Source of the DNA: a virus
Lineage: Duplodnaviria > Heunggongvirae > Uroviricota > Caudoviricetes
Reading direction: 5' to 3' (one strand)
DNA length: 18,763 nucleotides
Virus record (IMG/VR): IMGVR_UViG_2617270943_000005
Location: 1-18,763 of that record
The notes beneath the pieces are model-generated. The model had not been told where the DNA came from. It saw nothing but the letters and a program-made list of their open reading frames with translations, and did not search any database. Both the position numbers and the translations under genes were made by a program. Below, piece by piece: positions 1,837 to 18,763 of the stretch (positions are counted from its first letter, which is position 1; each line of letters opens with the position of its first letter).

Positions 1837-1856
1837 CGAAGACCATTAGGTCTTCG
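1837..1856. terminator. Bidirectional hairpin terminator between the convergent portal fragment and RT
   Basis: CGAAGACC (1837..1844), loop ATTA, GGTCTTCG (1849..1856): perfect 8-bp stem flanked by AAAA upstream and CTTTATTT downstream, so there is a U-run after the stem on both strands. The RT stop codon (1846..1848) lies in the loop. Confidence 0.6.
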
Positions 1857-2808
1857 CTTTATTTAAAGGGTTCTTTCCATATTTTTTTTCTAATTTGCTA
1901 ATATAAGTTATTAATCTTCTATGGCTTTTTGAATCCACACTTAAAATAAATGACAACCATCCCCTAACGTGTTCTATCTCAGAAGACTTACCGCAAAATA
2001 TATGATGTATCTTTGCTCTAATTTCTTTATATTTTTCTCTACCTATCCCAACTTTCTCTTGTGAAATAACTAAACCTGTAACTTTCCTCTGACTACGAGG
2101 CCCACTAATACAAGTTTTTTTTGAGTTAATAACCAATCCTTCACTTGGGATTATAGAAAATAAAAAATCACGTGCTTTAACAACCTTTTTCATAGACTGT
2201 GCAGATAAGGTGAGATCATCGGCATATCTCGTATATATCAAGCCCCGACTACCTGCATAGCCCTGAATACGATAATCAAGTTTAGAACATATTAGATTAG
2301 CTAATTTAGGTGATGATGGAGCACCTTGTGGTAGCAGATTTTTATAACAACATATTTTTGTCAAAACTGAAGATATTAGTCGATTATAACCAAGAGAATG
2401 GAACACTCCAAAAACTTTGTTAGCAGTTAAACTTGGGAAAAAATCCTCCAAATCAATATTCAGTATAAAGTTTGCCCCAATATGCGGGGTAGCATTATTC
2501 AAAATAGATTGGTGCTTTTCAAATCCAATAGAAAAAGGAGATGACGACAGTTTATCTAAAATGTTACGTAGAACCCATCCTTGTAAGGCTTTAAGTTCTC
2601 GAGAAGGTTGGTAAATGGTTCTCATTCTCTTCTCTGGGCCTTTCTTTTCTACAGTGTAGATCCTATAGCGAAAATCAGCTGTATAGATTAACAACCGAAG
2701 TGTTTCAACAGATATGCGAGTCGCCTTAGACATGTCATGCAAATTGTTCATGACAGGTAGGCCGAGATTTCTCAATCTAAAAGTGTTCAAATATTCAGCG
2801 GATTTCAT
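1846..2808 (-). CDS. ret: Retron reverse transcriptase (320 aa); recognised from memory as the retron Ec86 / Retron-Eco1 RT
   Basis: RT motifs in the translation: LPQGAPSSP, YADD (RYADDLTLS) and the retron-typical VTG (QRKVTGLVIS). ATG at 2808..2806 lies 7 nt downstream of the msr-msd 3' inverted repeat. Length and N-terminus MKSAEYLNTFRLRNLGLPVM match my recollection of the Ec86 RT. Confidence 0.93.
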   Translation of the reverse strand: MKSAEYLNTFRLRNLGLPVMNNLHDMSKATRISVETLRLLIYTADFRYRIYTVEKKGPEKRMRTIYQPSRELKALQGWVLRNILDKLSSSPFSIGFEKHQSILNNATPHIGANFILNIDLEDFFPSLTANKVFGVFHSLGYNRLISSVLTKICCYKNLLPQGAPSSPKLANLICSKLDYRIQGYAGSRGLIYTRYADDLTLSAQSMKKVVKARDFLFSIIPSEGLVINSKKTCISGPRSQRKVTGLVISQEKVGIGREKYKEIRAKIHHIFCGKSSEIEHVRGWLSFILSVDSKSHRRLITYISKLEKKYGKNPLNKAKT

Positions 2809-2814
2809 GAAAGT

Positions 2815-2984
2815 TGCGCACCCTTACGTCAGAAAAAACGGGTTTCCTGGTTGGCTCGGAGAGCATCAGGCGATGCTCTCCGTTCCAACAAGGAAAACAG
2901 ACAGTAACTCAGATTCAATGCAGGATGCCGAAACAACATCCAGAGGTTGACCTTAATGATAAACCTCTCGCTAAGGGTGCGCAT
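2815..2984 (-). ncRNA. msr-msd: Retron msr-msd non-coding RNA (template/primer for msDNA), Ec86-type
   Basis: Minus strand reads ATGCGCACCCTTAGCGAGAGGTTTATCATTAAGGTCAACCTCTGGATGTTGTTTCGGCATCCTGCATTGAATCTGAGTTACTGTCTGTTTTCCTTGTTGGAACGGAGAGCATCGCCTGATGCTCTCCGAGCCAACCAGGAAACCCGTTTTTTCTGACGTAAGGGTGCGCA. Perfect 12-bp a1/a2 inverted repeats at 2972..2983 and 2815..2826; long msd hairpin with an 11-bp tip stem at 2857..2882. Matches the Ec86 ncRNA as I recall it from retron-editing constructs. Confidence 0.9.
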
Positions 2985-3894
2985 ACGGAATCTTATCATA
3001 GTTAAATGTTGATTTTCTACGGTTTTCAAAATTCATAATCTCAAGCCGCAATCGGTCAAGTGTCTTTCTATCAAAGACGCTCCTAACATAGCTAGCCCCC
3101 AAAGCAGTGACCTGATAACCATCAGTCATTTGAAGTATTTTTCGTTCATTTATTAGACGAGAAACAACGGATCTAACAATAATTTTAGATAAAACATCAT
3201 CTTGCTTTATCGCTTTAAAAGCTAGTTCACACAGTGTGCGGTAGTTGACACTATCCAGTAAATAGATACAAGGCAATAGAAACCGCTCTGCGTATAATAT
3301 ATTTCCAATATCTTTTGATACTTTATTTTCTTTCCTAACCTGCTTAATAGATGCCATTAATTTTTTATATAATCGTAATTTTCTGGCAACATCAATAGAT
3401 GAATCACACATTTCTTTTAGTTCATTTGAACTACAACGCAAAACAGATTTTGAATTAAACTTACGCAACAAGCGAACAGGACCATAGTTAATAAAGCTAC
3501 GTTTTGATTTAAATTTTGCATCTTGAATGCAAATCAACTTTCTCCTTAAGTTTTCATTATTAGAGAACGCACCAAGCTCTGTGAAAGACCCCGGACTTTC
3601 AGGAAATAAAATTATTACATCGACAGCTTCAGCCAGAATATTTTCTAAACTTAAAAGGCTATGCTGCCCTTGACCAGCCAAAAGATCATCAAATAGATCT
3701 TCTGGATAAAATATATCAACATCACTGAACTTTGCTAAAAATTGTGATAATTGATGACGCCAAGATTGATGATTAGCAACGTCACCACCACATAGAAAAA
3801 TGGTTATTTTAATATTAGCTCCTCGATAGAAGCCTTTCTTTGTGAGATGTCCTATAAGCTGTTGTTGCTGCTCATCGGTAAATTTTTTATTCAT
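2971..3894 (-). CDS. Retron effector, nucleoside 2-deoxyribosyltransferase (NDT)-like protein with C-terminal extension (about 307 aa)
   Basis: Same strand as, and immediately upstream of, msr-msd and ret. NDT-like features: ANIKITIFLCGGD and VDVIILFPESPGSFTELGAF (candidate catalytic Glu in a DxGxxFExG-like context). Start chosen at ATG 3894..3892 because of the SD GGGGAGA 5 nt upstream; the six-frame ORF extends to 4026 but that N-terminal extension crosses a GC-rich non-coding-looking patch. Stop TAG at 2973..2971 lies inside the msr a1 repeat. Confidence 0.82.
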   Translation of the reverse strand: MNKKFTDEQQQQLIGHLTKKGFYRGANIKITIFLCGGDVANHQSWRHQLSQFLAKFSDVDIFYPEDLFDDLLAGQGQHSLLSLENILAEAVDVIILFPESPGSFTELGAFSNNENLRRKLICIQDAKFKSKRSFINYGPVRLLRKFNSKSVLRCSSNELKEMCDSSIDVARKLRLYKKLMASIKQVRKENKVSKDIGNILYAERFLLPCIYLLDSVNYRTLCELAFKAIKQDDVLSKIIVRSVVSRLINERKILQMTDGYQVTALGASYVRSVFDRKTLDRLRLEIMNFENRRKSTFNYDKIPYAHP

Positions 3895-3966
3895 AATCTC
3901 CCCGCTTTTTTCTACTTTATACATCAAGTTATGAATAGATCCAATCTCCATACCCCATGGCGCGCG

Positions 3967-3985
3967 CTCGTATCCCCGCCACGCC
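3967..3985 (-). other. cos-like motif (possible remnant of P2/186 cohesive-end site)
   Basis: Minus strand 3985..3973 reads GGCGTGGCGGGGA, matching the first 13 nt of the 19-nt P2/186 cohesive end as I recall it (P2 GGCGAGGCGGGGAAAGCAC); it then diverges. It sits in a short GC-rich patch between gene A and the portal fragment, where cos lies in P2. Confidence 0.35.
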
Positions 3986-4237
3986 TGCCCGCTTTGTATA
4001 GCGGTTTTCATGCACTCGCATGGCATAAGGGAAACCTTGCCAGAACTGGCGACCCTCAGCGAAAACGATCTTCAAACGATCATGCGGATTCATGCAGCAT
4101 AGACAGGCACTACTGAGCAATAGCGCTTGAGTTCAGTCAGATATGAGTCCTCAATGTAATACTAATACATCTTAACCGTTCATCATTATTCACATCGGGC
4201 TATGTAATTACAGAAAAACTTTTCACAATCAATTTTA

Positions 4238-4305: not shown

Positions 4306-5217
4306 ATGACATTAATTGTAGCTGGTTTCGAAAAAGATGGAACAATTGTTTTTTGCGGGGACTCACTAATAACAACAAAAGCAAATGGAAGCACTGTAAA
4401 ATTGACATCGTCCTTCAGAAAAATAATACCACTAGAAATTATTGTGCGAGTACCGGAAATCGATCCAAGTGGAAAAATCATAAATTACATTGAAAGCCTT
4501 TGCCAACATCGCTGCATGATTGCATTTGCAGGAAGCACGCTAGTTTCTCAACATATTATAAATTCTATACAAGGTCATCTGAAACAAATAAAATACACAT
4601 ATGATTCTGGCACATATGACTATTCAGAAGGATGCATAAAGGGTGCTGGCTATAAGTTAATAATGGGTTGTGAAGATAACAAAAGCGTTGAGGAAACCTA
4701 TTGGAACGAAGATATGTTTGTTGAGCCAGTAAAGAATGCGAACGAACTTATTAATAAAAATTTTCTACGCAACGTCTTTAGCCACTGCATACAGAAAACC
4801 ATGAATGAATTTTACATTAATATTAATGAGGAATTTAATCCAGAGTGGTTTGCAAGCGATTTCATTGTAGCTCTGTCTTGCTATGAGACTAAAAAAAACC
4901 ATCTTTTTACCTTTAAAATGGAATTTAATGAGTCAGGGGTCAATCTTATAGAAAAAGAAATTAATATCAATGAACTGGCAATAATTGGCATTTCAAGATA
5001 TAGCGAAGAAATAATTCAAGCATATCAAACTCAAAAAGCGACCCTCAGTACATCTGAAATTCTCAGCCAAGAGATTACTAAAGCAATCATAGACAATGAA
5101 AGCATTGATCTTAGAGAAATAGGAGATCCTGTCGTATTAAAAAAATTCAATCAACATCGTGAATTACGTGATGAGCAAAAACACTGGAGGTGCAATACTC
5201 CTCGAGAAAACCAATAA
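4306..5217 (+). CDS. Hypothetical protein (303 aa), AT-rich cargo gene in the old/tin-equivalent hotspot; possible Ntn-hydrolase (HslV/proteasome-like) N-terminal domain
   Basis: Long ORF with SD AGGAG (4296..4300) 5 nt before ATG 4306. N-terminus MTLIVAGFEKDGTIVFCGDSLITTKANGSTVKL... has Thr at position 2 and a pattern reminiscent of HslV ([23 protein letters not shown]...K). Codon usage is distinct from the neighbouring phage genes. Family assignment is tentative. Confidence 0.75.
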   Translation: MTLIVAGFEKDGTIVFCGDSLITTKANGSTVKLTSSFRKIIPLEIIVRVPEIDPSGKIINYIESLCQHRCMIAFAGSTLVSQHIINSIQGHLKQIKYTYDSGTYDYSEGCIKGAGYKLIMGCEDNKSVEETYWNEDMFVEPVKNANELINKNFLRNVFSHCIQKTMNEFYININEEFNPEWFASDFIVALSCYETKKNHLFTFKMEFNESGVNLIEKEININELAIIGISRYSEEIIQAYQTQKATLSTSEILSQEITKAIIDNESIDLREIGDPVVLKKFNQHRELRDEQKHWRCNTPRENQ

Positions 5218-5244
5218 ACGCCTCGCTATACTCGTTGTTCAACC

Positions 5245-5279
5245 TTGCTGACGCGAGAATAAAATTCTCACGTCAGCAA
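5245..5279. repeat. 35-bp inverted repeat (16-bp arms, 1 mismatch, 3-nt spacer) between convergent genes
   Basis: TTGCTGACGCGAGAAT aaa ATTCTCACGTCAGCAA at 5245..5279, between the stop of the 303-aa gene (5217) and the stop of the 62-aa ORF (5291). No clear U-tract follows on either strand. Confidence 0.5.
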
Positions 5280-5290
5280 CGTTCCTGCTG

Positions 5291-5479
5291 CTAACCGAGA
5301 AGATCCATTGAGCGGTTGTATTCGTGGCTTCTGATTTTTGCCATGAGTTCATCAGTCAATTCAGAAACCCACTGCAGAGCCAGCCCCTTCTCTTCATCAC
5401 TACACTCACTAGCCGCTACAAGCTTAAGAAAAAAATCAATGCGCTGGAGCTTCAAAGACTCCAAAAAATAGTCCTGCAT
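5291..5479 (-). CDS. Small protein (62 aa), putative SOS-inducible Tum-like antirepressor
   Basis: ATG 5479..5477 preceded by a strong SD AGGAGG; a LexA box lies 41 bp upstream; it sits downstream of gene A, as tum does in coliphage 186. The function is inferred from context; I do not recognise the protein sequence itself. Confidence 0.5.
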   Translation of the reverse strand: MQDYFLESLKLQRIDFFLKLVAASECSDEEKGLALQWVSELTDELMAKIRSHEYNRSMDLLG

Positions 5480-5519
5480 CTTTCCTCCTATGACACCAAA
5501 GCAATACTGTATATATAAC

Positions 5520-5539
5520 TACTGTTTATATTTACAGTA
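5520..5539. promoter_or_regulatory. LexA box (SOS operator)
   Basis: TACTGTTTATATTTACAGTA matches the consensus TACTGT(AT)4ACAGTA with perfect CTGT-N8-ACAG; an additional CTGT half-site lies at 5507..5510. Confidence 0.6.
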
Positions 5540-5631
5540 TATAATAATCTTACTGATGTAAAACGTTTTTTTACGTTCATCAGCCTGATATGCCTGGTAT
5601 TATTAAGAGCACGAATTGTTAACCCGCGTAA

Positions 5632-8073
5632 TTAATACAGGTTCCGCCACTTATCATCTTCCTGCAAACGCTGGTTCCGATAGAAGATTCGCAGGCCTGC
5701 TCCTGACGGAATGCTGCCGCCGCGAAGGAGTAAATCGACCTCTTTCTCGCTGCCATCAAATCCTCTGGACTTCAGTTCATACACGAGCTGCAGTCGCTGA
5801 TGGTCTGTAATTCGCTGTTTGTAGTCTTTACGACGTTTCGGTTTAACCAGGCGTAACCTTGCTACCAGTTCCCGGCGCTCTTTTTTGCTCAGACTGTGCA
5901 GGTATTCGTGCAACTCTTTGTCATCCATGCGGGTGATATCCGTTCTGGTATCCCCATCAGCTGATTTGTTTTTCTCCTGTTGGTTCAAATTTTCAGCAAG
6001 GGGACAGTTATTGCCACGAGTCCAAGGGGCGCAAGCGCCCTGGTCGGCTGCCGCCTCCTGAACGTCAACGGCCTTACGAACCATTTTCCACTTCACTGCA
6101 TGAGTGCAGATCTTGCCCTCTGCAATGGGTGACCAGATGCCATAAATACGAATACCGTGATCGCCATAGGCGGTTGGCTCTTCGTTGATTTCATAAGCGG
6201 TTCTGATGAGGTGATATTTGCGGGGAACCAGTACGCCGCCCTGCTTCATGATGTAGGTGGCAAAACAACCAGCATCAGCAGCAGCCAGGATGGCATCAAG
6301 GCGCGGGTTATCCAGTACCGGCGCACCTGCTTTTTTGTCACCCTGTTGCCTTGCCGCCTGACCAGCCAGCAATCGCAGTTCACGGTAAGCCTGACGCCCC
6401 GGAATGCCAAAGAAGCGGAATTGCTGAACACGATGCAGAGACGCCCAGGCATTAACGTATTCAGCGTTATCACACAGGGATTTCCCCGTTTCCTTACTGA
6501 TCTCGCCAGCCAGACCACGTCCGTCAATATTCTTACTGATATATTTCGCAATGTAGCTTGTCGGCGTTCCTTTGCGCGGGTTTATCAGCTCAGACTTAAA
6601 GCGTGGCCCCGTGTTATTGCCCAGCTCCTCGCGGTCTTCACGGATGGCAAACTTACGCAACAATGCAGTAATGGCGCGGCGGTCTTTTTTGCGCATGAAA
6701 CACAACAGGTGCCAGTGAACTGTGCCGTCATGATGCGGCTCAGCCACCCGCACGCCATACCAGCGCAACCCGGCTTTGTGCATAGCCTTACGAAATGCAG
6801 CAAACATGCCGACCAGATAATCACTGCTTTGTCTTACTGTCGCGTTGGTCCAGGTCGGGTTTGGCCTGCCGTTATTTAGCGTGGAATGGAAACGTGACGG
6901 ACAGGTGATGGTGTAGAAAACGGCGCAGTCACCGCGCATTTCCGCGATAAGCTCCAGACCTTTAACACAGGCCATCATCTCATTGCGGCGATGCGCAGGG
7001 TTGCTGCTGCTGGCGTTTACCACATCCTCCATGTCCAGCGTGTCGCCGTCTTCGTTCACCAGTTCATGAGAACGAAAAAACTCCAGCGACTTACGGCGCT
7101 GCTCACGTTTATGCATCACGGCTTCATAGCTGACATAGGGAGATGCTTTTTTGCTGACCAGGCAAACAGCACGCAACTGCTCTTCCCGCCATTCGCAACG
7201 CATCTTCCATAATTTCCGGTACCACCAGTCGGCGCACAACATACGCGCCAGCGAACCCGGAATGAGTTCATAGGGCACGGGTTTACGGCGGTTTCTTTTC
7301 CGGCGGAGTTGCTCAAACGCAGGCGGGATGACATCCAGACGCAGGGTTTCCGCTGCCATCTTTTCCCATGTCTTGCGGATTTCTTCTGGCTTAACGTCAT
7401 CGGTGACATACAAATCGCCACAAGCTGCATCAAGGCACATGCTCATATGCGCAGCGACAAGGGTAGACAAACGTTTCACCTGATCCTGACTCATTTCAGG
7501 CAGGATCAGCAGGCCGTCCAGCCCTTCATGGCTTGCCATAAAGCGAAAAGAAGTGGATAGCTGACTGTCGCGTACATGCTCCAGTCGTTCCAGACATGGC
7601 TTAATCGTCTCACGCAAATAGCGGGAATAAGCCTTTGGCCTGCCCAGGCTGCTGAAGTATTCAATACGTTGCATCAGCGGCTTGCTGATATGGGAAGGCT
7701 GGGCATTGACGTCCGCCAGAATGACCATATCTGGATTAAAACGCTGCTGCTCATGCGCCAGCTTTGCCCGGCTAATGAGCTTATCCTGCTCCATTTCGCG
7801 TTGGACAGGATCACGGGATTCATTAAAGAAATAACGCTCCCAGACCTGATCACTCAGTGCCTCGCGGCGCAGTTGTTCCTGCTCGTTATCGGCAGCGTAC
7901 AGAGTGATCAGGTTTGAAAGCGCAGAAATCGGCGCAACTTCCGCCGGGTCCAGATAAGGGTTAATGGCTTTCTTAGGTAAATTCCACGAATAACCCCCGG
8001 CAGAATTCTCAATGCTACCGGAAGTTACACTGACAAATGGATCGGCAAGACGGCCTGTGCTGATCTCTGTCAC
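5632..8073 (-). CDS. A: Phage replication initiation endonuclease (P2 gpA family), 813 aa
   Basis: Large ORF whose translation I recognise as the P2/186 replication protein A family. GTG start at 8073..8071 overlaps the TGA stop of the upstream gene (GTGA); SD AGGAG 7 nt upstream. Confidence 0.88.
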
Positions 8074-9080
8074 TCACAGACTCCTGCATATACACTGCTG
8101 CACACCGCTTTATCATTCATGCCTGCCAGCAGGTCAAACTGCATACCGCCCCGAGTCGTTAAGGCCCAGTCCCGATAAGTTTCAATGCCATAAGCATCAA
8201 CAGTTATGACTTCGATCCGTTTTTCAGCACGGCGCGGATCATGCGTGGATGGAAAGAACGTTGAATTGCCATGTCTTGAACATTCCGCAACCAGTCTTTC
8301 CCACTCAGCCACTCGGCGGATTTCTTCTGGCCAGCGTTGGAAAATCTCAGCAAGTTCTGACTTGCGAGCATGAATACATGGCATACAACCGACACGACTG
8401 CATCCCTGCATATAAAGGGGGTTAGGCTTAATGCCATGACGTTTGGCAATAGCAAACACATCCTCATGCAGCCAATTAAGGATCGGACGATAAACATGCA
8501 GGCCCAGAGTATTGTCTGCATCGTCCTCCCACTCAGGCAACAATGCACGTTCCGGTGATTCCTGCCCCCGGACTCCTTGCCAGCTGATTACCTCATCGTA
8601 TTTATCCAGAGCCGGATCGATTACCTGTGTACGTATTGGTTCATGTTTCAGTTCAAAAGTGCAGAAACGAGCTTTTGTTGAAGGGAAGCGACCTTTCCAC
8701 ATGCACAAATCAAGAAACGGAACGCCGGTTGGTTTAAGGATTTCCAGTGCCCGGTAAATACGTTCCTCAGCCTCATCTGTCGACATACCACATTCCTCAA
8801 CGAGAGAAATGGGCCACTTTTCCGCAATGAATTTACGTTTCCCTTCTATCTGGCGTGTGAAATCCGCTTTGACGCGAATAATCTTGCCCAGCTTTGATTC
8901 CAGATAATCCAGATATTCTATTGTCTGTGGATGTTCATGACCCGTATCGGCAAATACAGAAATATGCGGAACATCGTTTTCAATGGCTCTTAGCCATTGA
9001 GCGAGACTATCTTTGCCACCAGAAGTAGTGATGATGTTAATGGTGCTTGAGGCAAAGCAACGCGGATCGATAGCATTCAT
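8070..9080 (-). CDS. Phosphoadenosine-phosphosulfate (PAPS) reductase-like family protein, 336 aa
   Basis: N-terminal ITTSGGKDS is the PP-loop (SGGxDS) typical of PAPS reductase / ATP-pyrophosphatase-fold proteins; ATG 9080 overlaps the dam stop (ATGA); SD GAGG present. Confidence 0.8.
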
Positions 9081-9925
9081 GAGCGTACCTCAACGGTACG
9101 GTCAGAGCCGCTGGCAAAATCGACACCAAACCACCCAGCTGATTTGGTGGCAATGATTTCTGCTGCAGATTTACTCTCGCCAGCTGACACGCCGATGCTG
9201 CGTTTTGCCTTGATGTAGTAGTGAGTGAAATTGCGATACAGCGAACGAATCAGGGATGTGTCACTGTTAGAAACAATGACCGGATGACCTTCAGATGATC
9301 GATGTTCAAGAACGGATGCCAGGTGATACTGGTCATCTTCAGTGAAGCCATCAGTGTGATAGCCGGAAAACGTACCGTCATAAGGCGGATCGCAATACAC
9401 CACATCCCCCGCCTTCAACATCGCCAGCGTTTCATCAAAGCTGGCGCAGATAAACGTTGCCCGCTGGGCTTTCTCTGCAAATGCGCGAATTTCTTTTTCA
9501 GGGAAATACGGATTTTTATAATTACCGTAGGGAATGTTGAAATACCCGCTCTTGTTATAGCGACATAACCCACGATAACCATGACGATTGAGATACAGAA
9601 AATATACCGCTTTCATGAAATCAGTAATTTCAGTGGAGTAATTAAACTCCTGCCTTATGTTGTAATAAGCCACCTCCCTGTTTGCTTCCTCAAATAAAGC
9701 TCTGGCACGAGATATAAACGCCTCACAATCAGCAGCAACCTTTTTATAGAGGTTGATTAAATCAGGATTAATATCCGCAACAAGATAGCTGGGGTAATCC
9801 GTCTCCATCATCACTGCACAGGAACCCGCGAAAGGTTCAACCAGTCGCGGGCCAGCAGGAAGATGCTTTTTCAGTTCGGACATTATGGCGGTTTTATTTC
9901 CCGCCCATTTCAGGATGGTGCTCAT
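9077..9925 (-). CDS. dam: DNA N6-adenine methyltransferase (Dam family), 282 aa
   Basis: Motifs [16 protein letters not shown] and DPPY (VYCDPPYDG). Start chosen at ATG 9925 (SD GGAGG; overlaps the stop of the upstream gene, ATGA) rather than the longer six-frame ORF starting at 9985. Confidence 0.88.
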
Positions 9926-10149
9926 ACAGCACCTCCGTTGTAATGTTTGCCTTTCAGCTCTGCGATTTCCTGACAGGTAATGCAAAGCTGCACACCCGGA
10001 ATGGCACGACGGCGTGCTGGCGGAATTGGCGCTTCACACTCAACGCAAAGCACGCGGGACACGCCCGGCGTTTTGGCACGGGCAGCACGGATATGACGTT
10101 GGCGTTCTTCTTCAACTCGCTGCTGTACGAGATCCATTGCATCAGCCAT
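9922..10149 (-). CDS. TraR/DksA-family C4 zinc-finger protein, 75 aa
   Basis: CVEC-x17-CITC four-cysteine finger in a 75-aa protein, typical of small phage TraR/DksA-like proteins; start overlaps the upstream stop (TGATG). Confidence 0.82.
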   Translation of the reverse strand: MADAMDLVQQRVEEERQRHIRAARAKTPGVSRVLCVECEAPIPPARRRAIPGVQLCITCQEIAELKGKHYNGGAV

Positions 10150-11504: not shown

Positions 11505-11747
11505 TTACTTACCAACAATGACGCGGAAGTTGGAATGACCGAGGGATTCACGGACCTGATCGGTTTTGTACATTAAATAACGCAGGCTTACGCGGCCTTT
11601 GTTTTTTTCCTTCTTGACCATGTATTTAGCAAGCTGACCATGGTGAATTTTTTGATACACAGAGCCGCGGGAGATACCTTCCCATTCAGCGAACTCAGCA
11701 GGCGTTGCCATCTCTTTTGGTACACGAATTGAAATATCAGTACTCAT
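11505..11747 (-). CDS. Cox/Apl-like small DNA-binding protein (excisionase/repressor), 80 aa
   Basis: First gene of the operon divergent from cI-int; small basic protein; position identical to apl in 186 and cox in P2. Confidence 0.6.
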   Translation of the reverse strand: MSTDISIRVPKEMATPAEFAEWEGISRGSVYQKIHHGQLAKYMVKKEKNKGRVSLRYLMYKTDQVRESLGHSNFRVIVGK

Positions 11748-11868: not shown

Positions 11869-12501
11869 ATGTTAAACATCAGAATGGGTTCCGATACGGG
11901 AGGTAAAGCAGCTATTGAGAGGCTGCTTGCGGCTTATGGATTTACAACTAAGCAGGCATTAAGCGAGCACCTGAATGTCTCAAAAAGCACTATGGCGAAC
12001 AGAGTGTTACGTGACAGTTTTCCTGCTGACTGGATAATTCAGTGCGCACTAGAAACCGGTGTTTCGTTGCTTTGGTTAGCTACAGGACAGGGAAGCATGA
12101 AAGGAGGAAGTGAGCCTGAAAAAAGATCTCACAATGAGAACAAACAAGCAATTAAACCGTTATCCAAACTCATAACTCCATCTATTCCTAAAGGAACCTT
12201 GGAGAATGGACAACTCAGTATTGATGAAGAGATTTTCTTAGACCACAGCATATTACCTGCAGATTATGAAGAATCGATGTTCTTAGAAACCCCTACTGAT
12301 TGTTATCTCATCGATAAATCAGTTAAACAAGTCAGCAATGGATTCTGGCTTATCAATATTGATGGAATGATTATTATTGCAAAAATCATGCGGATTCCCG
12401 GCAATAAGATTGTAGTAAATCAAGATGAAGCGTCTTTCGAGTGCTCTGCTGATGATGTGGAAGTTATTGGGCGTGCAGTCAAAGTAATAAAGAGTATCTA
12501 A
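11869..12501 (+). CDS. cI: Phage CI-like repressor (186 CI family), 210 aa
   Basis: N-terminal HTH region (TTKQALSEHLNVSKSTMANRVLRD) and two-domain architecture like 186 CI; directly upstream of, and coupled to, int; divergent from the apl/cII operon. Confidence 0.8.
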   Translation: MLNIRMGSDTGGKAAIERLLAAYGFTTKQALSEHLNVSKSTMANRVLRDSFPADWIIQCALETGVSLLWLATGQGSMKGGSEPEKRSHNENKQAIKPLSKLITPSIPKGTLENGQLSIDEEIFLDHSILPADYEESMFLETPTDCYLIDKSVKQVSNGFWLINIDGMIIIAKIMRIPGNKIVVNQDEASFECSADDVEVIGRAVKVIKSI

Positions 12502-13527: not shown

Positions 13528-14766
13528 ATGGTTATTGAAACTAAAAGCAAAAAAATATCAAAAGTTGCGTTAAAAAGGCTTTTTAACACTATTTTAAAAA
13601 AATCCTCAATTCGTCCTCCTATAGAAGTTGGCAAAAATAATGACCTAATTACTGATTTCTCTGCAAAATGTGAAAAATTTAAAGATTGCCTGAAAGAATA
13701 CATAGAAAACAATAATGATGATATCTTAGCAAGAAGAGTTAAGAGCAGATTAAAAGTTATTGAGTCCGTGCAAGAAGGCATAATAAATTGTTTGGAATGC
13801 TTTCTTTCCGGAGATATCAAGTCAGCGTATGATTCTTTTGAGGAAATGCTTGAGCCAGATTTTGTATCAAGGCATATTAAAAATATTTGCATACCTTTAT
13901 CTGAAAAGTGTGGTAATAACAAGCGTCTATTTAGAGTCAGGAAATCCGAACGCCCTTTATCAACAAGAAAAGATATCTTTCATATTCCTTTCAATCAGCG
14001 CCATCTGGTTAGTGCACAACGCTACTCAGTTGCAGGTCTTCCGTGCCTTTATTTAGGAACTTCATTGTATATCTGCTGGCGAGAAATGGACAAACCCGAT
14101 TTTGATAAGTTATATATATCATCATTTACCACTAGCTCAGAGAATAATGAATCGCTACTATTAGATTTTAGTGCTGATTTCCTTTATAAAACGAAGCTAT
14201 TCTTTACATCTAAAAAAGAACATTCTTCAGCAAAAGAGCTTTCTTCGGTCACAATGTTATCATACCTCGCATTATGGCCTTTAATAATCGCATGCAATTA
14301 TTTAAAAAAACATAGCAATGCATCTTTCATTCAGGAATATATAATACCAAACTTACTTATGCAGTGGATAAGCAGGGATATTAACGATTACAACATTGTT
14401 GGAATTGCTTATCGTTCAACAAAACTACCTGCAAATGCTGATAGTGAGAGAGGGGTCAATGTCGTTCTTCCTCCAAAAATTCGTTACGAAGACATGAAGG
14501 TTAACGAATTCTGCCCAGAACTCTCCGGCTTATTTCACTGTACCCCACCAGTATCATGGCAGGTTCTAAAAACTCTTGAATATGTACCATTGCGTCAATC
14601 CTTCTCAGATAGAGAGATATTGAGTGACGAGCTCAGGAACAAAAAGCTCTGGGATATAATGGGCAATCTTGATGATGAAATTTTGAGCATTTATAAATTA
14701 TCTGACTTTTACAAGCTTGAAGTTTGTATGGATGAAATCCAAGTCCATAACGACATAAACACATAA
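13528..14766 (+). CDS. RES-domain-like protein (412 aa), AT-rich cargo between int and the right att repeat
   Basis: Segment RLFRVRKSERP...QRYSVAGLPCLYLGTSLYICWRE fits the RES-domain pattern (Arg ... G-x-P-x-LY-x-x-S ... E). Strong compositional shift to AT-rich immediately after the int stop. Confidence 0.65.
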   Translation: MVIETKSKKISKVALKRLFNTILKKSSIRPPIEVGKNNDLITDFSAKCEKFKDCLKEYIENNNDDILARRVKSRLKVIESVQEGIINCLECFLSGDIKSAYDSFEEMLEPDFVSRHIKNICIPLSEKCGNNKRLFRVRKSERPLSTRKDIFHIPFNQRHLVSAQRYSVAGLPCLYLGTSLYICWREMDKPDFDKLYISSFTTSSENNESLLLDFSADFLYKTKLFFTSKKEHSSAKELSSVTMLSYLALWPLIIACNYLKKHSNASFIQEYIIPNLLMQWISRDINDYNIVGIAYRSTKLPANADSERGVNVVLPPKIRYEDMKVNEFCPELSGLFHCTPPVSWQVLKTLEYVPLRQSFSDREILSDELRNKKLWDIMGNLDDEILSIYKLSDFYKLEVCMDEIQVHNDINT

Positions 14767-14883: not shown

Positions 14884-14921
14884 ATGTAGGAATTTCGGAC
14901 GCGGGTTCAACTCCCGCCAGC
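14884..14921 (+). repeat. Right copy of 38-bp direct repeat (att site; duplicated ssrA 3' segment without the CCA end)
   Basis: Identical to 1016..1053; followed by CGATTGGACG instead of the tmRNA 3' end. Confidence 0.85.
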
Positions 14922-15076: not shown

Positions 15077-18000
15077 TCAGAACGACCAGTTCACACCAGC
15101 CACCGCGTTCCACGGGGATTCCACACCGGCACCATGGCTATACCCCACCCCGAGATGCCCGCTTAACGAACTGCTGAATGAGGCTTTAATACCTGCCTGG
15201 TATATTCCACGTCTGCCCGACAAATCATTGACAAAATTACCGTCATTATTCACTTTCACCCGGTTATCATCGACAAATTCTTTGCGCACAGCCGCCTTCA
15301 GCCACGGCTCAACTTCCATGCCGTTCCCCAGACGCATGTTGTAACTCAGCGTTGCGCCCAGTTCACGATATATACTGCGAGTATCGACTGATTTCGATTC
15401 CATACCATTGGATAAATGATATTCGGGGTTATCAGCGGTGAACCCCGTTAAAGATGCATACGGCGTCAGGTTCCAGTTACCATCGGTAAATCGCATCCCG
15501 GTTTCAATGTGACCGCCCAGCCCGTTGCTGCGATAACTGCCGTTGGCGGCTCCACCGCTGCTCATTTTACCGGCTACGTTACTTTCAAAGCGGTTCAGCT
15601 TCACGATACCGTCCAGATAGAAACCACTTTCATGTTCCCAGCTGACATAGCCCCCCAGAGAATAACTGCCCACACTGCCATGTCCTCCACGATCAAAACC
15701 GATATGTGAATGGGAATAACCCATAAAAGCGCCCAGCGTCGCAATCCCCTCAGGAATACCATTACGGCTATCGATCCCCACCGTCATTCCGGTCAGCGTC
15801 TGCTCAAACCCGGCACCCGCATCGGTGGTGACATTATTACGGGTGTTATACGTCGTCCCCCAGACATTATTGTTGTGTGGACTCGCTTTCATTATGTTCA
15901 ACCGCTCGCGAATACTGTTTAGCTCAGCATCAAAGACCAACGGTAATGTTGCTGCCATATTGAGTACGGCTGCCGTAGAAGGCGTGATGCGTTTCTCCGG
16001 GACGGGTGTCGGCGTTGGATCGGGAGTCGGGTCTGGTTTCGGATCCGGTTTTGGGTCTGGTTTTGGATCCGGTTTCGGATTTGGGTTGGGGTCCGGGTTG
16101 GGTTTGACATCATTGGTCAGGTTCCAGTTGCTGTTGCCGTCGCTTTTCAGGACATACTCATAGGTCCCAAGATCAACGAAACCGCCGGTATTACCCAGCG
16201 TAAACGAAGCATCCCCTCCCCCTGTTTTCACCAGCGTCATCGCGTCGTCAGACTGAGGGCTGACGCCGGTATCCTGAACAAAGATTTTAAAATTGCCAGT
16301 GGCGTTGTTGTTGACGACCAGTTGATCGCCCCGGGAGCCTGCAACGTTGGTATGCAGGTAGAAATTACCGCTGCCGGAAAGTTCACTGGTGGTCAGCGTA
16401 TTGTAGATACCGTTAGTTGTGGCAGGCGCTGCTGTTTGTGCTGATAAATAAACATCACCGTCGTTGAGGAGCAAACTGTTTACTCTATATTCGCAGTTGC
16501 TGGTGCCTGCACAGGAATTATTGCTGTTAAGCCAGACACTGCCCCGGCTGGCAGCCGTCAGGTCGGCAAGCGTCGTATCGACGCCATTTCCGATAGTTAA
16601 TGTCGCGCTATCGGTAATCCGGACCACCCCTTCAAGTTTAACTGGCGTAACATTATCCCGTGGCGTCATTAACGACAGGCTTCCTGTCGCGCCACTGACC
16701 GATGCATCCGCCAGCGTACCTGCGTAGACGATTGCCGTCCCGCCAGCGACCTGTAGATCTTCTGCCCGGGCCAGAGCCTGAAACTCATCTTTTGACCGAC
16801 CAAGGGTATATTGCCCACCGGAATTAACCTTTGTGGCGAAGTCCTGACCCAGGTTTTGCATTGCCCCACCGTTGCCAACCGTGGAATCGCGAGCTTCGGT
16901 ACCTGCTAATACCAATAAATTACCGCCATTTTCCAGCAGCACATTGGTCGCTAAATTTCCGGCAATGGAAAAGGTGCCGTACTGGTGAGTACCGCTGATT
17001 TCAATACCGTTAGCCGTGCTCGTCTGGAGAGCGGCACCGCTGTTCTGGATGATATCTGTCGCTTTGCCATTATCGTTGACTGTCAGCGTACCGCCTTCAT
17101 TAATCGTTGTTTTTACTGCCTCACCGTTAGCCGAAACTGTTTGTATTCCGCCGTCGTTAATCGTTGTCTCATTCGCCACACCCTCGACGATTTGTTCACC
17201 GCCGGTAAGCATCGTGCCAGTCGCAGTGGCTTTTGTTTTGACGATCTCCCGTCCGCCCGCATTGACCTGTGTTTTGGCGGAAGTGGTGTCTGACTCCACG
17301 GTTAACACGCCGCCATTTGCCAGCAGGATATTGTTCGCCGCATCCTGCTCGATGCTGAACGCGACGCCATCAGCGCGTGTCCCTGTGACCCGCGTCGCCC
17401 TGGTGGTTGCCACCAACGCGCCCTGGCTACTCTGCTGTATCCCCGTAGCGCTGCCTTTCTCCCGCACATCGAGTGTGCCGCCGTCATTAAGTACCGAGTT
17501 TTCAGCCAGACCGCCCTCATTAACTACCTGTGAACCGCCATTAATAATGGAACCTTCCGCTGTCCCGTTTGCCATAATTTGTTGTAGGCCAGAGGCGATA
17601 TCGGTATTGATCGCCTTACCATAATTCTGAACGGTTTGCGTGCCGCCTTTGATGTGCGTTTTATCTGTTGACCCACCATCAACAATTTGTTCACCACTTT
17701 CGATATTTGCCTCAGTGGCTAAACCATATACCGTTTGCTTGCCACCTTTGATATTTGCTTTATCAGAAGTGGCACTGGCATATATTGTTTGGGTGCCCGC
17801 ACTATTGAGTACAGTGCCAACATCTTTTCCATAAACATCCATTTTGCCGTTGGCATTAATAATCGTATCAACTGCCCGGGAACCAGTAACGACTGTTAAT
17901 GAGCCAGCGTTTTCCAGCACTACATTTTTAGCTTCTGAATTCCTGATGTAGAAAGCATCACCATAACTGTTGGTTCCTTCGATAAGTGTTCCGGAAGTCG

Positions 18001-18763
18001 TGGAAGCAATTAATGCGCCGCCGGATTGTTGCTCAACATGCTTAGCCTCACCACCGTCCTGAACCTCCAGAACGCCACCATTATTAAGTCTGGTGGTATC
18101 TGTTTTAGCCTCCTTCTGGACAATCAGCTTACCGCCAGCATCAACGGTAGTATTTTTCGCCGTGGTTTTAGCCACTACCGTCAGTTCGCCGGTATTTTCC
18201 AGCACAACATAATTAGCCTCCCCTCCGGTAATAGTGAAGTGAGAGAGCTTGTTGTATCCTTCAATATCAGTCCCTGCGCCCGTGTTGGCAACTAAAGCAC
18301 TGCCCGTCTCCTGGTTAACCCCATGTGCGATACCACCGGTATAGACAATCAGCGAGCCTCCGGTGCTAATATTGCTGCCAGTTGCCGTACCATCTTTCTC
18401 AACAACCTGCCGGCTCCCGGAGGAGATATTTGTCGTGTCAGCTTTCCCGCCGCTCTTGATATTTTGTGTTCCGCTGTTGATATTGGTTCCCGTGGCAATA
18501 CCATGATTATTTATATTCTGTGTGCCACCATTAATGATGGTATTTGTCGCGTTTCCGGCAACATCCATAACGCCGCCATTATCTATTCGGGTCGCATCAG
18601 CTTTAGCATTCGTTAAAACTGACATTGTTCCGTTATCTTTAATAATCGTCTTATTTGCCGAACCATATACGTCTAAATGACCACCGTTTTCCAGCAACAC
18701 ATTGTCTGCCACGTTATTGTGAATAGAGAATGCCCCTTCACTATTCGTACCGCTCACCGTCGA
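15077..18763 (-). CDS. Autotransporter adhesin (AIDA-I/Ag43-type; YpjA-like by position), partial; N-terminus beyond window
   Basis: ORF open to the window end. Repetitive passenger with G/N/T-rich beta-helix-like repeats, a Pro-rich linker (PNPDPNPNPKPDPKPDP...) and a C-terminal beta-barrel ending ...GVNWSF (terminal aromatic). Confidence 0.85.
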   Translation of the reverse strand, partial: STVSGTNSEGAFSIHNNVADNVLLENGGHLDVYGSANKTIIKDNGTMSVLTNAKADATRIDNGGVMDVAGNATNTIINGGTQNINNHGIATGTNINSGTQNIKSGGKADTTNISSGSRQVVEKDGTATGSNISTGGSLIVYTGGIAHGVNQETGSALVANTGAGTDIEGYNKLSHFTITGGEANYVVLENTGELTVVAKTTAKNTTVDAGGKLIVQKEAKTDTTRLNNGGVLEVQDGGEAKHVEQQSGGALIASTTSGTLIEGTNSYGDAFYIRNSEAKNVVLENAGSLTVVTGSRAVDTIINANGKMDVYGKDVGTVLNSAGTQTIYASATSDKANIKGGKQTVYGLATEANIESGEQIVDGGSTDKTHIKGGTQTVQNYGKAINTDIASGLQQIMANGTAEGSIINGGSQVVNEGGLAENSVLNDGGTLDVREKGSATGIQQSSQGALVATTRATRVTGTRADGVAFSIEQDAANNILLANGGVLTVESDTTSAKTQVNAGGREIVKTKATATGTMLTGGEQIVEGVANETTINDGGIQTVSANGEAVKTTINEGGTLTVNDNGKATDIIQNSGAALQTSTANGIEISGTHQYGTFSIAGNLATNVLLENGGNLLVLAGTEARDSTVGNGGAMQNLGQDFATKVNSGGQYTLGRSKDEFQALARAEDLQVAGGTAIVYAGTLADASVSGATGSLSLMTPRDNVTPVKLEGVVRITDSATLTIGNGVDTTLADLTAASRGSVWLNSNNSCAGTSNCEYRVNSLLLNDGDVYLSAQTAAPATTNGIYNTLTTSELSGSGNFYLHTNVAGSRGDQLVVNNNATGNFKIFVQDTGVSPQSDDAMTLVKTGGGDASFTLGNTGGFVDLGTYEYVLKSDGNSNWNLTNDVKPNPDPNPNPKPDPKPDPKPDPKPDPTPDPTPTPVPEKRITPSTAAVLNMAATLPLVFDAELNSIRERLNIMKASPHNNNVWGTTYNTRNNVTTDAGAGFEQTLTGMTVGIDSRNGIPEGIATLGAFMGYSHSHIGFDRGGHGSVGSYSLGGYVSWEHESGFYLDGIVKLNRFESNVAGKMSSGGAANGSYRSNGLGGHIETGMRFTDGNWNLTPYASLTGFTADNPEYHLSNGMESKSVDTRSIYRELGATLSYNMRLGNGMEVEPWLKAAVRKEFVDDNRVKVNNDGNFVNDLSGRRGIYQAGIKASFSSSLSGHLGVGYSHGAGVESPWNAVAGVNWSF
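16000..16105. repeat. Tandem 12-nt repeats encoding the (K/T)PDP linker of the autotransporter
   Basis: GGATCCGGTTTT / GGGTCTGGTTTT / GGATCCGGTTTC-type units; the other frames give artefactual GSGFGSG and RIRNQT ORFs. Confidence 0.6.

Follow-up and report, generated by a model that had tools for sequence, protein, structure and literature searches.

A probable SOS induction module with a short TumA-type antirepressor gene in a retron-bearing, Felsduovirus-like prophage remnant

In the Tum family of phage antirepressors, LexA is reported to repress the promoter p95, the SOS response to relieve this repression, and pR then to fire (passages of PMC3121763 and PMC7708051, citing Shearwin 1998 and Lamont et al. 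1989). Coliphage 186's Tum protein is described in the same passages as binding the CI repressor and preventing its binding to the operators (Shearwin et al. 1998, via PMC3121763 and PMC7708051). In Fels-2 and PSP3, a stop codon divides tum into two genes, one for the antirepressor and one homologous to dinI (PMC3121763), and the antirepressor activity of PSP3 is reported to reside in the upstream gene (PMC3121763, citing Bunny et al. 2002 and a personal communication of G. E. Christie). The gene ECHS_RS04495 of Escherichia coli HS has been named tum of the P2-like prophage DuoHS; its in-frame deletion abolishes mitomycin-C-induced lysis and virion foci and leaves an SOS reporter unaffected, and a lexA(Ind-) allele also blocks the induction of DuoHS by mitomycin C (PMC12055606). 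This deletion establishes necessity, not sufficiency, and DuoHS also has a dinI-like tumB. In the Gifsy/Fels-1 prophages, the small LexA-controlled proteins GfoA, GftA and FsoA inactivate non-cleavable repressors by binding them, and these antirepressors can act in trans on other prophages (PMC3121763).

We analysed a stretch of 18,763 bp (18.8 kb), hereafter the window, in which a sequence-only reading had noticed a near-consensus LexA box in front of a 62-aa ORF and had proposed a Tum-like switch making an island, and perhaps its cargo genes, responsive to DNA damage. On our analysis, the probability is about 85% that this module belongs to a Fels-2/186-like (Peduoviridae) prophage and serves its induction by the SOS response.

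The LexA box and the region upstream of tumA

Positions 5520-5539 of the window read TACTGTTTATATTTACAGTA on the plus strand, matching the LexA consensus at 18 of 20 positions. The perfect CTGT-N8-ACAG spacing noticed earlier was confirmed and occurs only here in the window. When the 20-nt consensus TACTGTATATATATACAGTA was searched with up to three mismatches, TACTGTTTATATTTACAGTA was again the sole match, with two mismatches that both lie in the A/T spacer. At this threshold, 200 dinucleotide-preserving shuffles gave no match at all. Six further CTG-N10-CAG matches were found in the window; since their spacers are GC-rich and all of them lie inside long ORFs, we read them as probable chance occurrences. 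A perfect LexA half-site, TACTGTATAT on the plus strand (5505..5514), lies 5 nt from the full box and has no matching second arm; its ACAGT arm is kept in Fels-2, Cartapus and DuoHS.

The box lies between two genes of the minus strand. Upstream, phage replication gene A (5632..8073, 813 aa; Pfam PF05840 Phage_GPA, E 2.4e-127) closes the early operon, directly ahead of the SOS module, and ends 92 nt before the box. Downstream, the ATG of the 62-aa ORF (5291..5479) follows the box by 40 nt, which agrees, within counting convention, with the 41 bp given by the sequence-only reading. The AGGAGG Shine-Dalgarno sequence that it reported was also found, at 5484..5489 on the minus strand; it stands 4 nt from the ATG and is identical in all close relatives. 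The 62-aa gene is thus placed as the first gene downstream of gene A in a P2/186-like genome, and the resemblance of this location to that of 186 tum was borne out by the 186 record, which gives the order A, LexA-controlled p95, tum. The same order of A and then tum is found in PSP3, Fels-2, DuoHS and distant homologues.

Within the 160 nt upstream of the ORF, a single pair of -35 and -10 hexamers scored at least 8/12: a putative -35 TTTACA (5557..5562, minus strand) separated by 17 nt from a putative -10 TACTGT (5534..5539, minus strand), the latter being the promoter-proximal arm of the LexA box. The annotated p95 of phage 186 reads TTCACA-18-TACTGT, and its LexA site begins at the -10 (186 record). 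TACTGT as both -10 and LexA-box arm recurs in Fels-2, Cartapus, DuoHS, ESSI-2 and ev015; the -35/-10 scan assigned no pair in PSP3 or in Yersinia YenM06.16-2, and both have a near-consensus box. A generic promoter and terminator scan of 5150-5700 reported nothing, as the -10 matches the consensus at only 3 of 6 positions and the hairpins have no T-runs; the promoter was therefore assigned by analogy with 186 p95. By this analogy the tumA promoter is putatively of p95 type, with the geometry of the annotated 186 promoter, and the LexA box would overlap it.

A LexA box with at most three mismatches precedes the homologous gene in every lineage compared, about ten in number: 186, PSP3, Fels-2, Cartapus, DuoHS, YenM06.16-2, ESSI-2, ev015 and three metagenomic or genomic lineages. 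In three distant lineages, whose TumA proteins are only 36-44% identical, the box has three mismatches and lies 15-22 nt before the start codon; box and tumA homologue again come directly after gene A. The flanking sequence has diverged among tumA lineages and the box has been kept, and this conservation is the strongest computational argument that the box may be functional. We infer that LexA binds at 5520-5539.

Immediately after gene A, the RNA fold of 5632..5540 contains an imperfect hairpin at 5552..5584 on the minus strand (-18.9 kcal/mol, z = -2.4). Its 3' arm contains the -35 hexamer and its sequence is conserved in Fels-2, Cartapus and DuoHS; it may possibly act as a weak terminator insulating tumA from the early transcript. 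A search of 5200-5650 against Rfam detected no RNA family. A role of the box for a gene of the plus strand was considered and rejected: the sole plus-strand ORF downstream (5616..5810, with a TTG start) lies antisense inside gene A.

Identity of the 62-aa protein

We call the 62-aa gene tumA on the basis of homology, of its match to phrog_698 and of an AF2 model. The protein matches phrog_698 at E 3e-37, and also phrog_8554 (9e-9) and phrog_1993 (2e-3). In the other direction, 186 Tum matches phrog_8554 at 1.4e-11 and phrog_1993 at 1e-22, and its residues 7-44 match phrog_698 at E 2.4e-5, so that the PHROG matches are reciprocal. A family profile (A2) was built from 28 diverse homologues retrieved by a HMMER scan of 1.84 billion representatives. 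Aligned by hhalign with 186 Tum, this 28-sequence profile gave a probability of 94.9% and an E value of 4.5e-8 over residues 3-44; against PSP3 TumA the result was weak (probability 8.7%). Pairwise BLASTP of the 62-aa protein with 186 Tum returned no alignment, and the homology is therefore visible only with profiles. The similarity to 186 Tum expected from the sequence-only reading thus stood at the profile level and failed in pairwise comparison. To judge from the profiles, the relation to the N-terminus of 186 Tum appears remote but consistent. The suggestion that so short an ORF represents the antirepressor module only also gained support: the aligned part is residues 3-44 of 186 Tum, and split tum genes are known in Fels-2 and PSP3.

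The AF2 model of TumA (pLDDT 89) has helices at residues 2-23 and 28-61, and the predicted fold is a two-helix hairpin. Could the protein be another small SOS protein, for instance a DinI-like modulator of RecA and the SOS response, or a toxin? It has no family in Pfam, NCBIfam or PADLOC, and a Foldseek search of the model against the PDB retrieved, with no match at E <= 0.001, only generic helical hairpins such as designed proteins and the small subunit of ExoVII, which would suit such a protein. However, the part of 186 Tum to which it aligns is not the DinI-like part, which comprises residues 72-142 and is unrepresented in the 62-aa protein, and neither the NCBIfam DinI profile PRK10597 nor Pfam gave a DinI match. 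Moreover, the nearly identical DuoHS gene is needed for prophage induction and not for activation of the SOS reporter (PMC12055606), and it is the upstream gene of PSP3 that reportedly carries antirepressor activity (PMC3121763). We consider another kind of SOS protein barely credible. By analogy with the described systems, the 62-aa gene is best taken as the short TumA form of a Tum-type antirepressor, with CI binding and induction by DNA damage putative here. The LexA-controlled, Tum-like switch of the sequence-only reading is accordingly upheld by the profile homology, by identity with DuoHS tum over residues 1-59 and by the presence of a 186-type CI.

About 1,100 of 5,426 complete E. coli genomes contain close homologues of the stretch. 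Many 'hypothetical proteins' of 60-62 aa encoded after gene A in Fels-2-like prophages can be read as Tum antirepressors, and the LexA box lets one read their SOS inducibility straight from the sequence.

The dinI slot and the cargo genes

Neither a C-terminal DinI-like domain nor a downstream dinI-like tumB was found at the tumA of the window, which is thus neither a full-length Tum nor a tumA-tumB pair. Where phage Cartapus has approximately 255 bp with dinI, the window has 16 bp (5287-5302). The tumA gene is identical in nucleotide sequence to the E. coli HS copy through codon 59, after which seven of the nine last coding bases differ; with dinI missing as well, the module boundary must lie inside the last tumA codons, and 5287-5302 appears from the sequence to be a recombination junction. 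TumA without DinI is also found in distant lineages, and a stand-alone TumA is therefore a normal configuration. In the protein collection, 122 index blocks contain exactly this 62-aa sequence. At all eight of the eight places among the matches listed, this exact variant (ending in DLLG) adjoins the same convergent 303-aa gene, with variable cargo and a portal gene beyond; among this cargo are an AAA_13 ATPase, a PDDEXK protein of GAPS4 type, a retron and an IS.

The 303-aa gene (4306-5217, plus strand) is convergent with tumA and occupies the tumB/dinI slot of Fels-2, DuoHS and RE-2010. Its product has no match in Pfam or PADLOC and falls in phrog_25719, a family of unknown function. Met1-Thr2 is invariant in 20 homologues, and the AF2 model (pLDDT 85, pTM 0.85) has Foldseek matches to 20S proteasome subunits and to HslV (E 4e-5 to 1e-3); the protein may accordingly be an N-terminal-Thr (Ntn) hydrolase. 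The gene is absent from the 5,426 complete E. coli genomes. Among GTDB species representatives, a search for the exact 40-nt junction gave no hits, and neither did a search for the locus of the 303-aa protein.

Between tumA and the 303-aa gene, the RNA fold shows a hairpin with a 16-bp stem at 5241..5283, whose energy is -31.6 kcal/mol (z = -5.0) for the tumA strand and -24.5 kcal/mol (z = -4.9) for the opposite one. It lacks a U-tract and stands in the position of 186 t95a; its homologue in phage Cartapus is the hairpin following dinI. It is a probable bidirectional terminator, and probably the one bounding retron insertions in 186-related prophages (Dodd & Egan 1996, as listed in PMC6868368).

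Beyond the 303-aa gene lies an Ec86/St85-type retron (1846-4026, minus strand), made up of a reverse transcriptase (RT_II-A, 1846-2808, E 7e-128) and an effector (NDT_II-A, 2971-4026, E 5e-94), the DNA of the region being 97.7% identical to the retron region of E. coli B/BL21. An inverted repeat is present in the gap of about 160 bp between the two genes (2809-2970), the expected place of msr-msd; a search of 2700-3100 against Rfam gave no retron msr match.

The sequence-only reading had raised the possibility that cargo genes are SOS-responsive. In its strong form, the LexA-controlled transcript would serve mainly to make the cargo (retron and 303-aa gene) responsive to DNA damage, by read-through or antisense interference. 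The tumA and retron genes do lie on the same strand, the 186 p95 transcript partly reads through t95a into orf97 (186 annotation), and the hairpin after tumA has no U-tract. Yet that hairpin, with its 16-bp stem and a z of -5, and a convergent gene of 0.9 kb stand between tumA and the retron effector; the window contains no second LexA box that could serve the cargo; and identical tumA loci have quite different cargo beyond the 303-aa gene, so that no cargo is specifically coupled to tumA. On these three grounds we find no support in the sequence for SOS control of the retron or of the neighbouring gene, and the suggestion was not sustained; a transcript serving mainly the cargo is quite improbable.

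Repressor, remnant and likeness to described Tum systems

The element encodes a 186-type CI immunity repressor of 210 aa (11869..12501, plus strand; Pfam PF07022 and PF16452). Pfam detected no peptidase S24 (self-cleavage) domain in it and, by analogy, CI would not be cleavable by RecA; we infer that it is the target of TumA. An Apl/Cox-like excisionase-repressor gene (11505..11747, minus strand; phrog_6912 and phrog_575, excisionase and Cox-like) stands first in the CI-repressed lytic operon. The immunity region is that of Salmonella phage RE-2010, whose CI is 96.7% identical and whose TumA is 93.5% identical to those of the window.

TumA is not always paired with the same repressor. Identical TumA proteins accompany a CI of 189 aa in three related loci (L011, L012 and L016) and one of 210 aa in two others (L013 and L015) and in the window; the two CI forms are about 44% identical, their N-terminal domains sharing 65% identity and their C-terminal domains 33%. 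The CI of DuoHS compares with that of the window in the same way (45% identical; N-terminal domain 65%, C-terminal domain 33%), and in phage records whose TumA is at least 95% identical, CI is about 40% to 59% identical to the window CI. In phages of Klebsiella, Salmonella and Escherichia, CI varies far more than TumA does. These pairings hint at a conserved target surface and at possible cross-induction. One may go further and picture TumA as a broad-range antirepressor of the conserved N-terminal DNA-binding domain of CI, through which the remnant would induce heteroimmune P2-like prophages in trans, or would itself excise or amplify together with its retron and proteasome-like cargo upon DNA damage; we regard this extension as unlikely and put it forward as speculation.

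The window begins with smpB (1-483) and the tmRNA gene ssrA (698-1060). A 38-bp copy of the 3' end of ssrA (1016-1053) is repeated at 14884-14921, and the two copies bound an element of about 13.9 kb. From left to right this element holds a portal-gene fragment (1184-1828), the retron, the 303-aa gene, tumA, gene A, the early and immunity genes, the integrase gene and a 412-aa ORF; the genes met beyond gene A are those for PAPS reductase, Dam, a DksA-like zinc finger, DUF2732, DUF5347, Fil, CII, Apl/Cox-like protein and CI. Its best phage relatives are Salmonella RE-2010 and Fels-2. It runs collinear (98.3%) with L017, a contig in which the portal gene is full length and the terminase gene present. 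Homology to intact relatives, L017 among them, begins at 1225, within the portal gene; everything from ogr to the 5' part of Q has therefore been deleted. A search with a P2-type cos sequence found no match. The 'island' is a cryptic Felsduovirus-like prophage remnant integrated at ssrA.

The PAPS-reductase-like gene and the Dam methylase gene precede gene A at 8070-9985 on the minus strand; the former may be likened to orf84, which precedes A in 186, and the latter to the Dam gene found in the Ec67 retron element. The PAPS-reductase gene is missing from some relatives whose tumA is identical. The 412-aa ORF (13528-14766, plus strand; phrog_7835) lies between the integrase gene and attR; a gene also stands at this place in RE-2010, with a DNA similarity of only about 72%. 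Just outside attR, a 1226-aa autotransporter adhesin of the AIDA/pertactin type is encoded at 15077-18757 on the minus strand.

The window thus combines the sequence features, homology, synteny and conservation described above with a repressor of the right type, and every sequence element of the Tum circuit is present at full length. In undamaged cells, LexA bound at 5520-5539, over the p95-type -10, would silence tumA. Upon DNA damage, active RecA would promote the self-cleavage of LexA and the promoter would fire. The TumA so made would bind the 186-type CI, which has no self-cleavage domain, and stop it from holding its operators. The early lytic operon (apl, cII, fil, dam, the PAPS-reductase gene and gene A) would then be derepressed. 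As all late genes are lost, derepression cannot give phage, that is, neither lysis nor particles. At most, the outcome would be excision mediated by Apl and Int, replication dependent on A, expression of Fil and Dam, or action in trans on related prophages. The proposal that derepression of the island responds to DNA damage is supported in that the parts of the switch are present, but what they would derepress is a remnant that cannot produce phage.

The loss of the late genes, with homology to L017 starting at 1225 in the portal gene, also raises the question of whether the module is an inert relic, left by a recent deletion, in which TumA would still respond to SOS and have no selectable function. 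At 99-100% identity, the tumA locus recurs in contigs with a full-length portal gene and the terminase gene (100% over 500 bp in three such contigs, as judged from stretches of 12 kb), which fits a recent deletion that has left no time for decay. Against this, the whole early region (int, CI, apl, cII, fil, dam, A and tumA) has kept its full length, so that the switch could drive excision, replication or induction in trans. We hold an inert relic to be rather unlikely, and the question bears on what the switch leads to, leaving untouched what the module is. If the module is the SOS induction module that we propose, a remnant with an Ec86-type retron keeps, by its sequence, a complete DNA-damage switch, and could excise, replicate or cross-induce prophages under genotoxic stress such as quinolone treatment.

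The closest described counterpart is DuoHS tum, also of 62 aa, whose residues 1-59 are identical to those of the window in protein and DNA, codon for codon; the last three residues differ, the ends reading DLLG in the window and DVIS in DuoHS. DuoHS shares the Shine-Dalgarno sequence, the TTTACA-17-TACTGT promoter and the position after gene A, and the primers used for the deletion in PMC12055606 match the Shine-Dalgarno and ATG context of the window. The core of the LexA box is the same, one base differing at the last position. However, DuoHS has its dinI-like gene 10 nt downstream of tum whereas the window has none, and DuoHS is a complete, inducible phage whereas the element of the window is a remnant. 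In Fels-2, the small gene after A (STM2728) has a LexA box in front and its product is 94% identical to the window protein in alignment. PSP3 TumA, annotated separately from tumB in the PSP3 record as 'similar to 5' end of 186 tum; UV induction of prophage', is highly divergent (16% identity to the window protein in alignment). Both phages have a DinI-like tumB directly downstream of tumA, unlike the window. Coliphage 186 Tum (146 aa) is expressed from the p95 SOS operon at the same genomic position, with the LexA box on the promoter -10; its N-terminal part of about 44 residues is homologous to the window TumA and a 186-type CI is the target, presumably in the window too, but 186 Tum carries a fused C-terminal DinI-like domain and has orf97 after it, and the window protein has neither. 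The Gifsy/Fels-1 antirepressors are further removed, belonging to lambdoid phages with another repressor family and with dinI before the antirepressor gene in the operon. An SOS switch with a short TumA, as already described for Fels-2/186-like phages, is known and ordinary; the locus leaves the current understanding of the Tum mechanism unchanged and takes its place beside DuoHS, Fels-2, PSP3 and 186.
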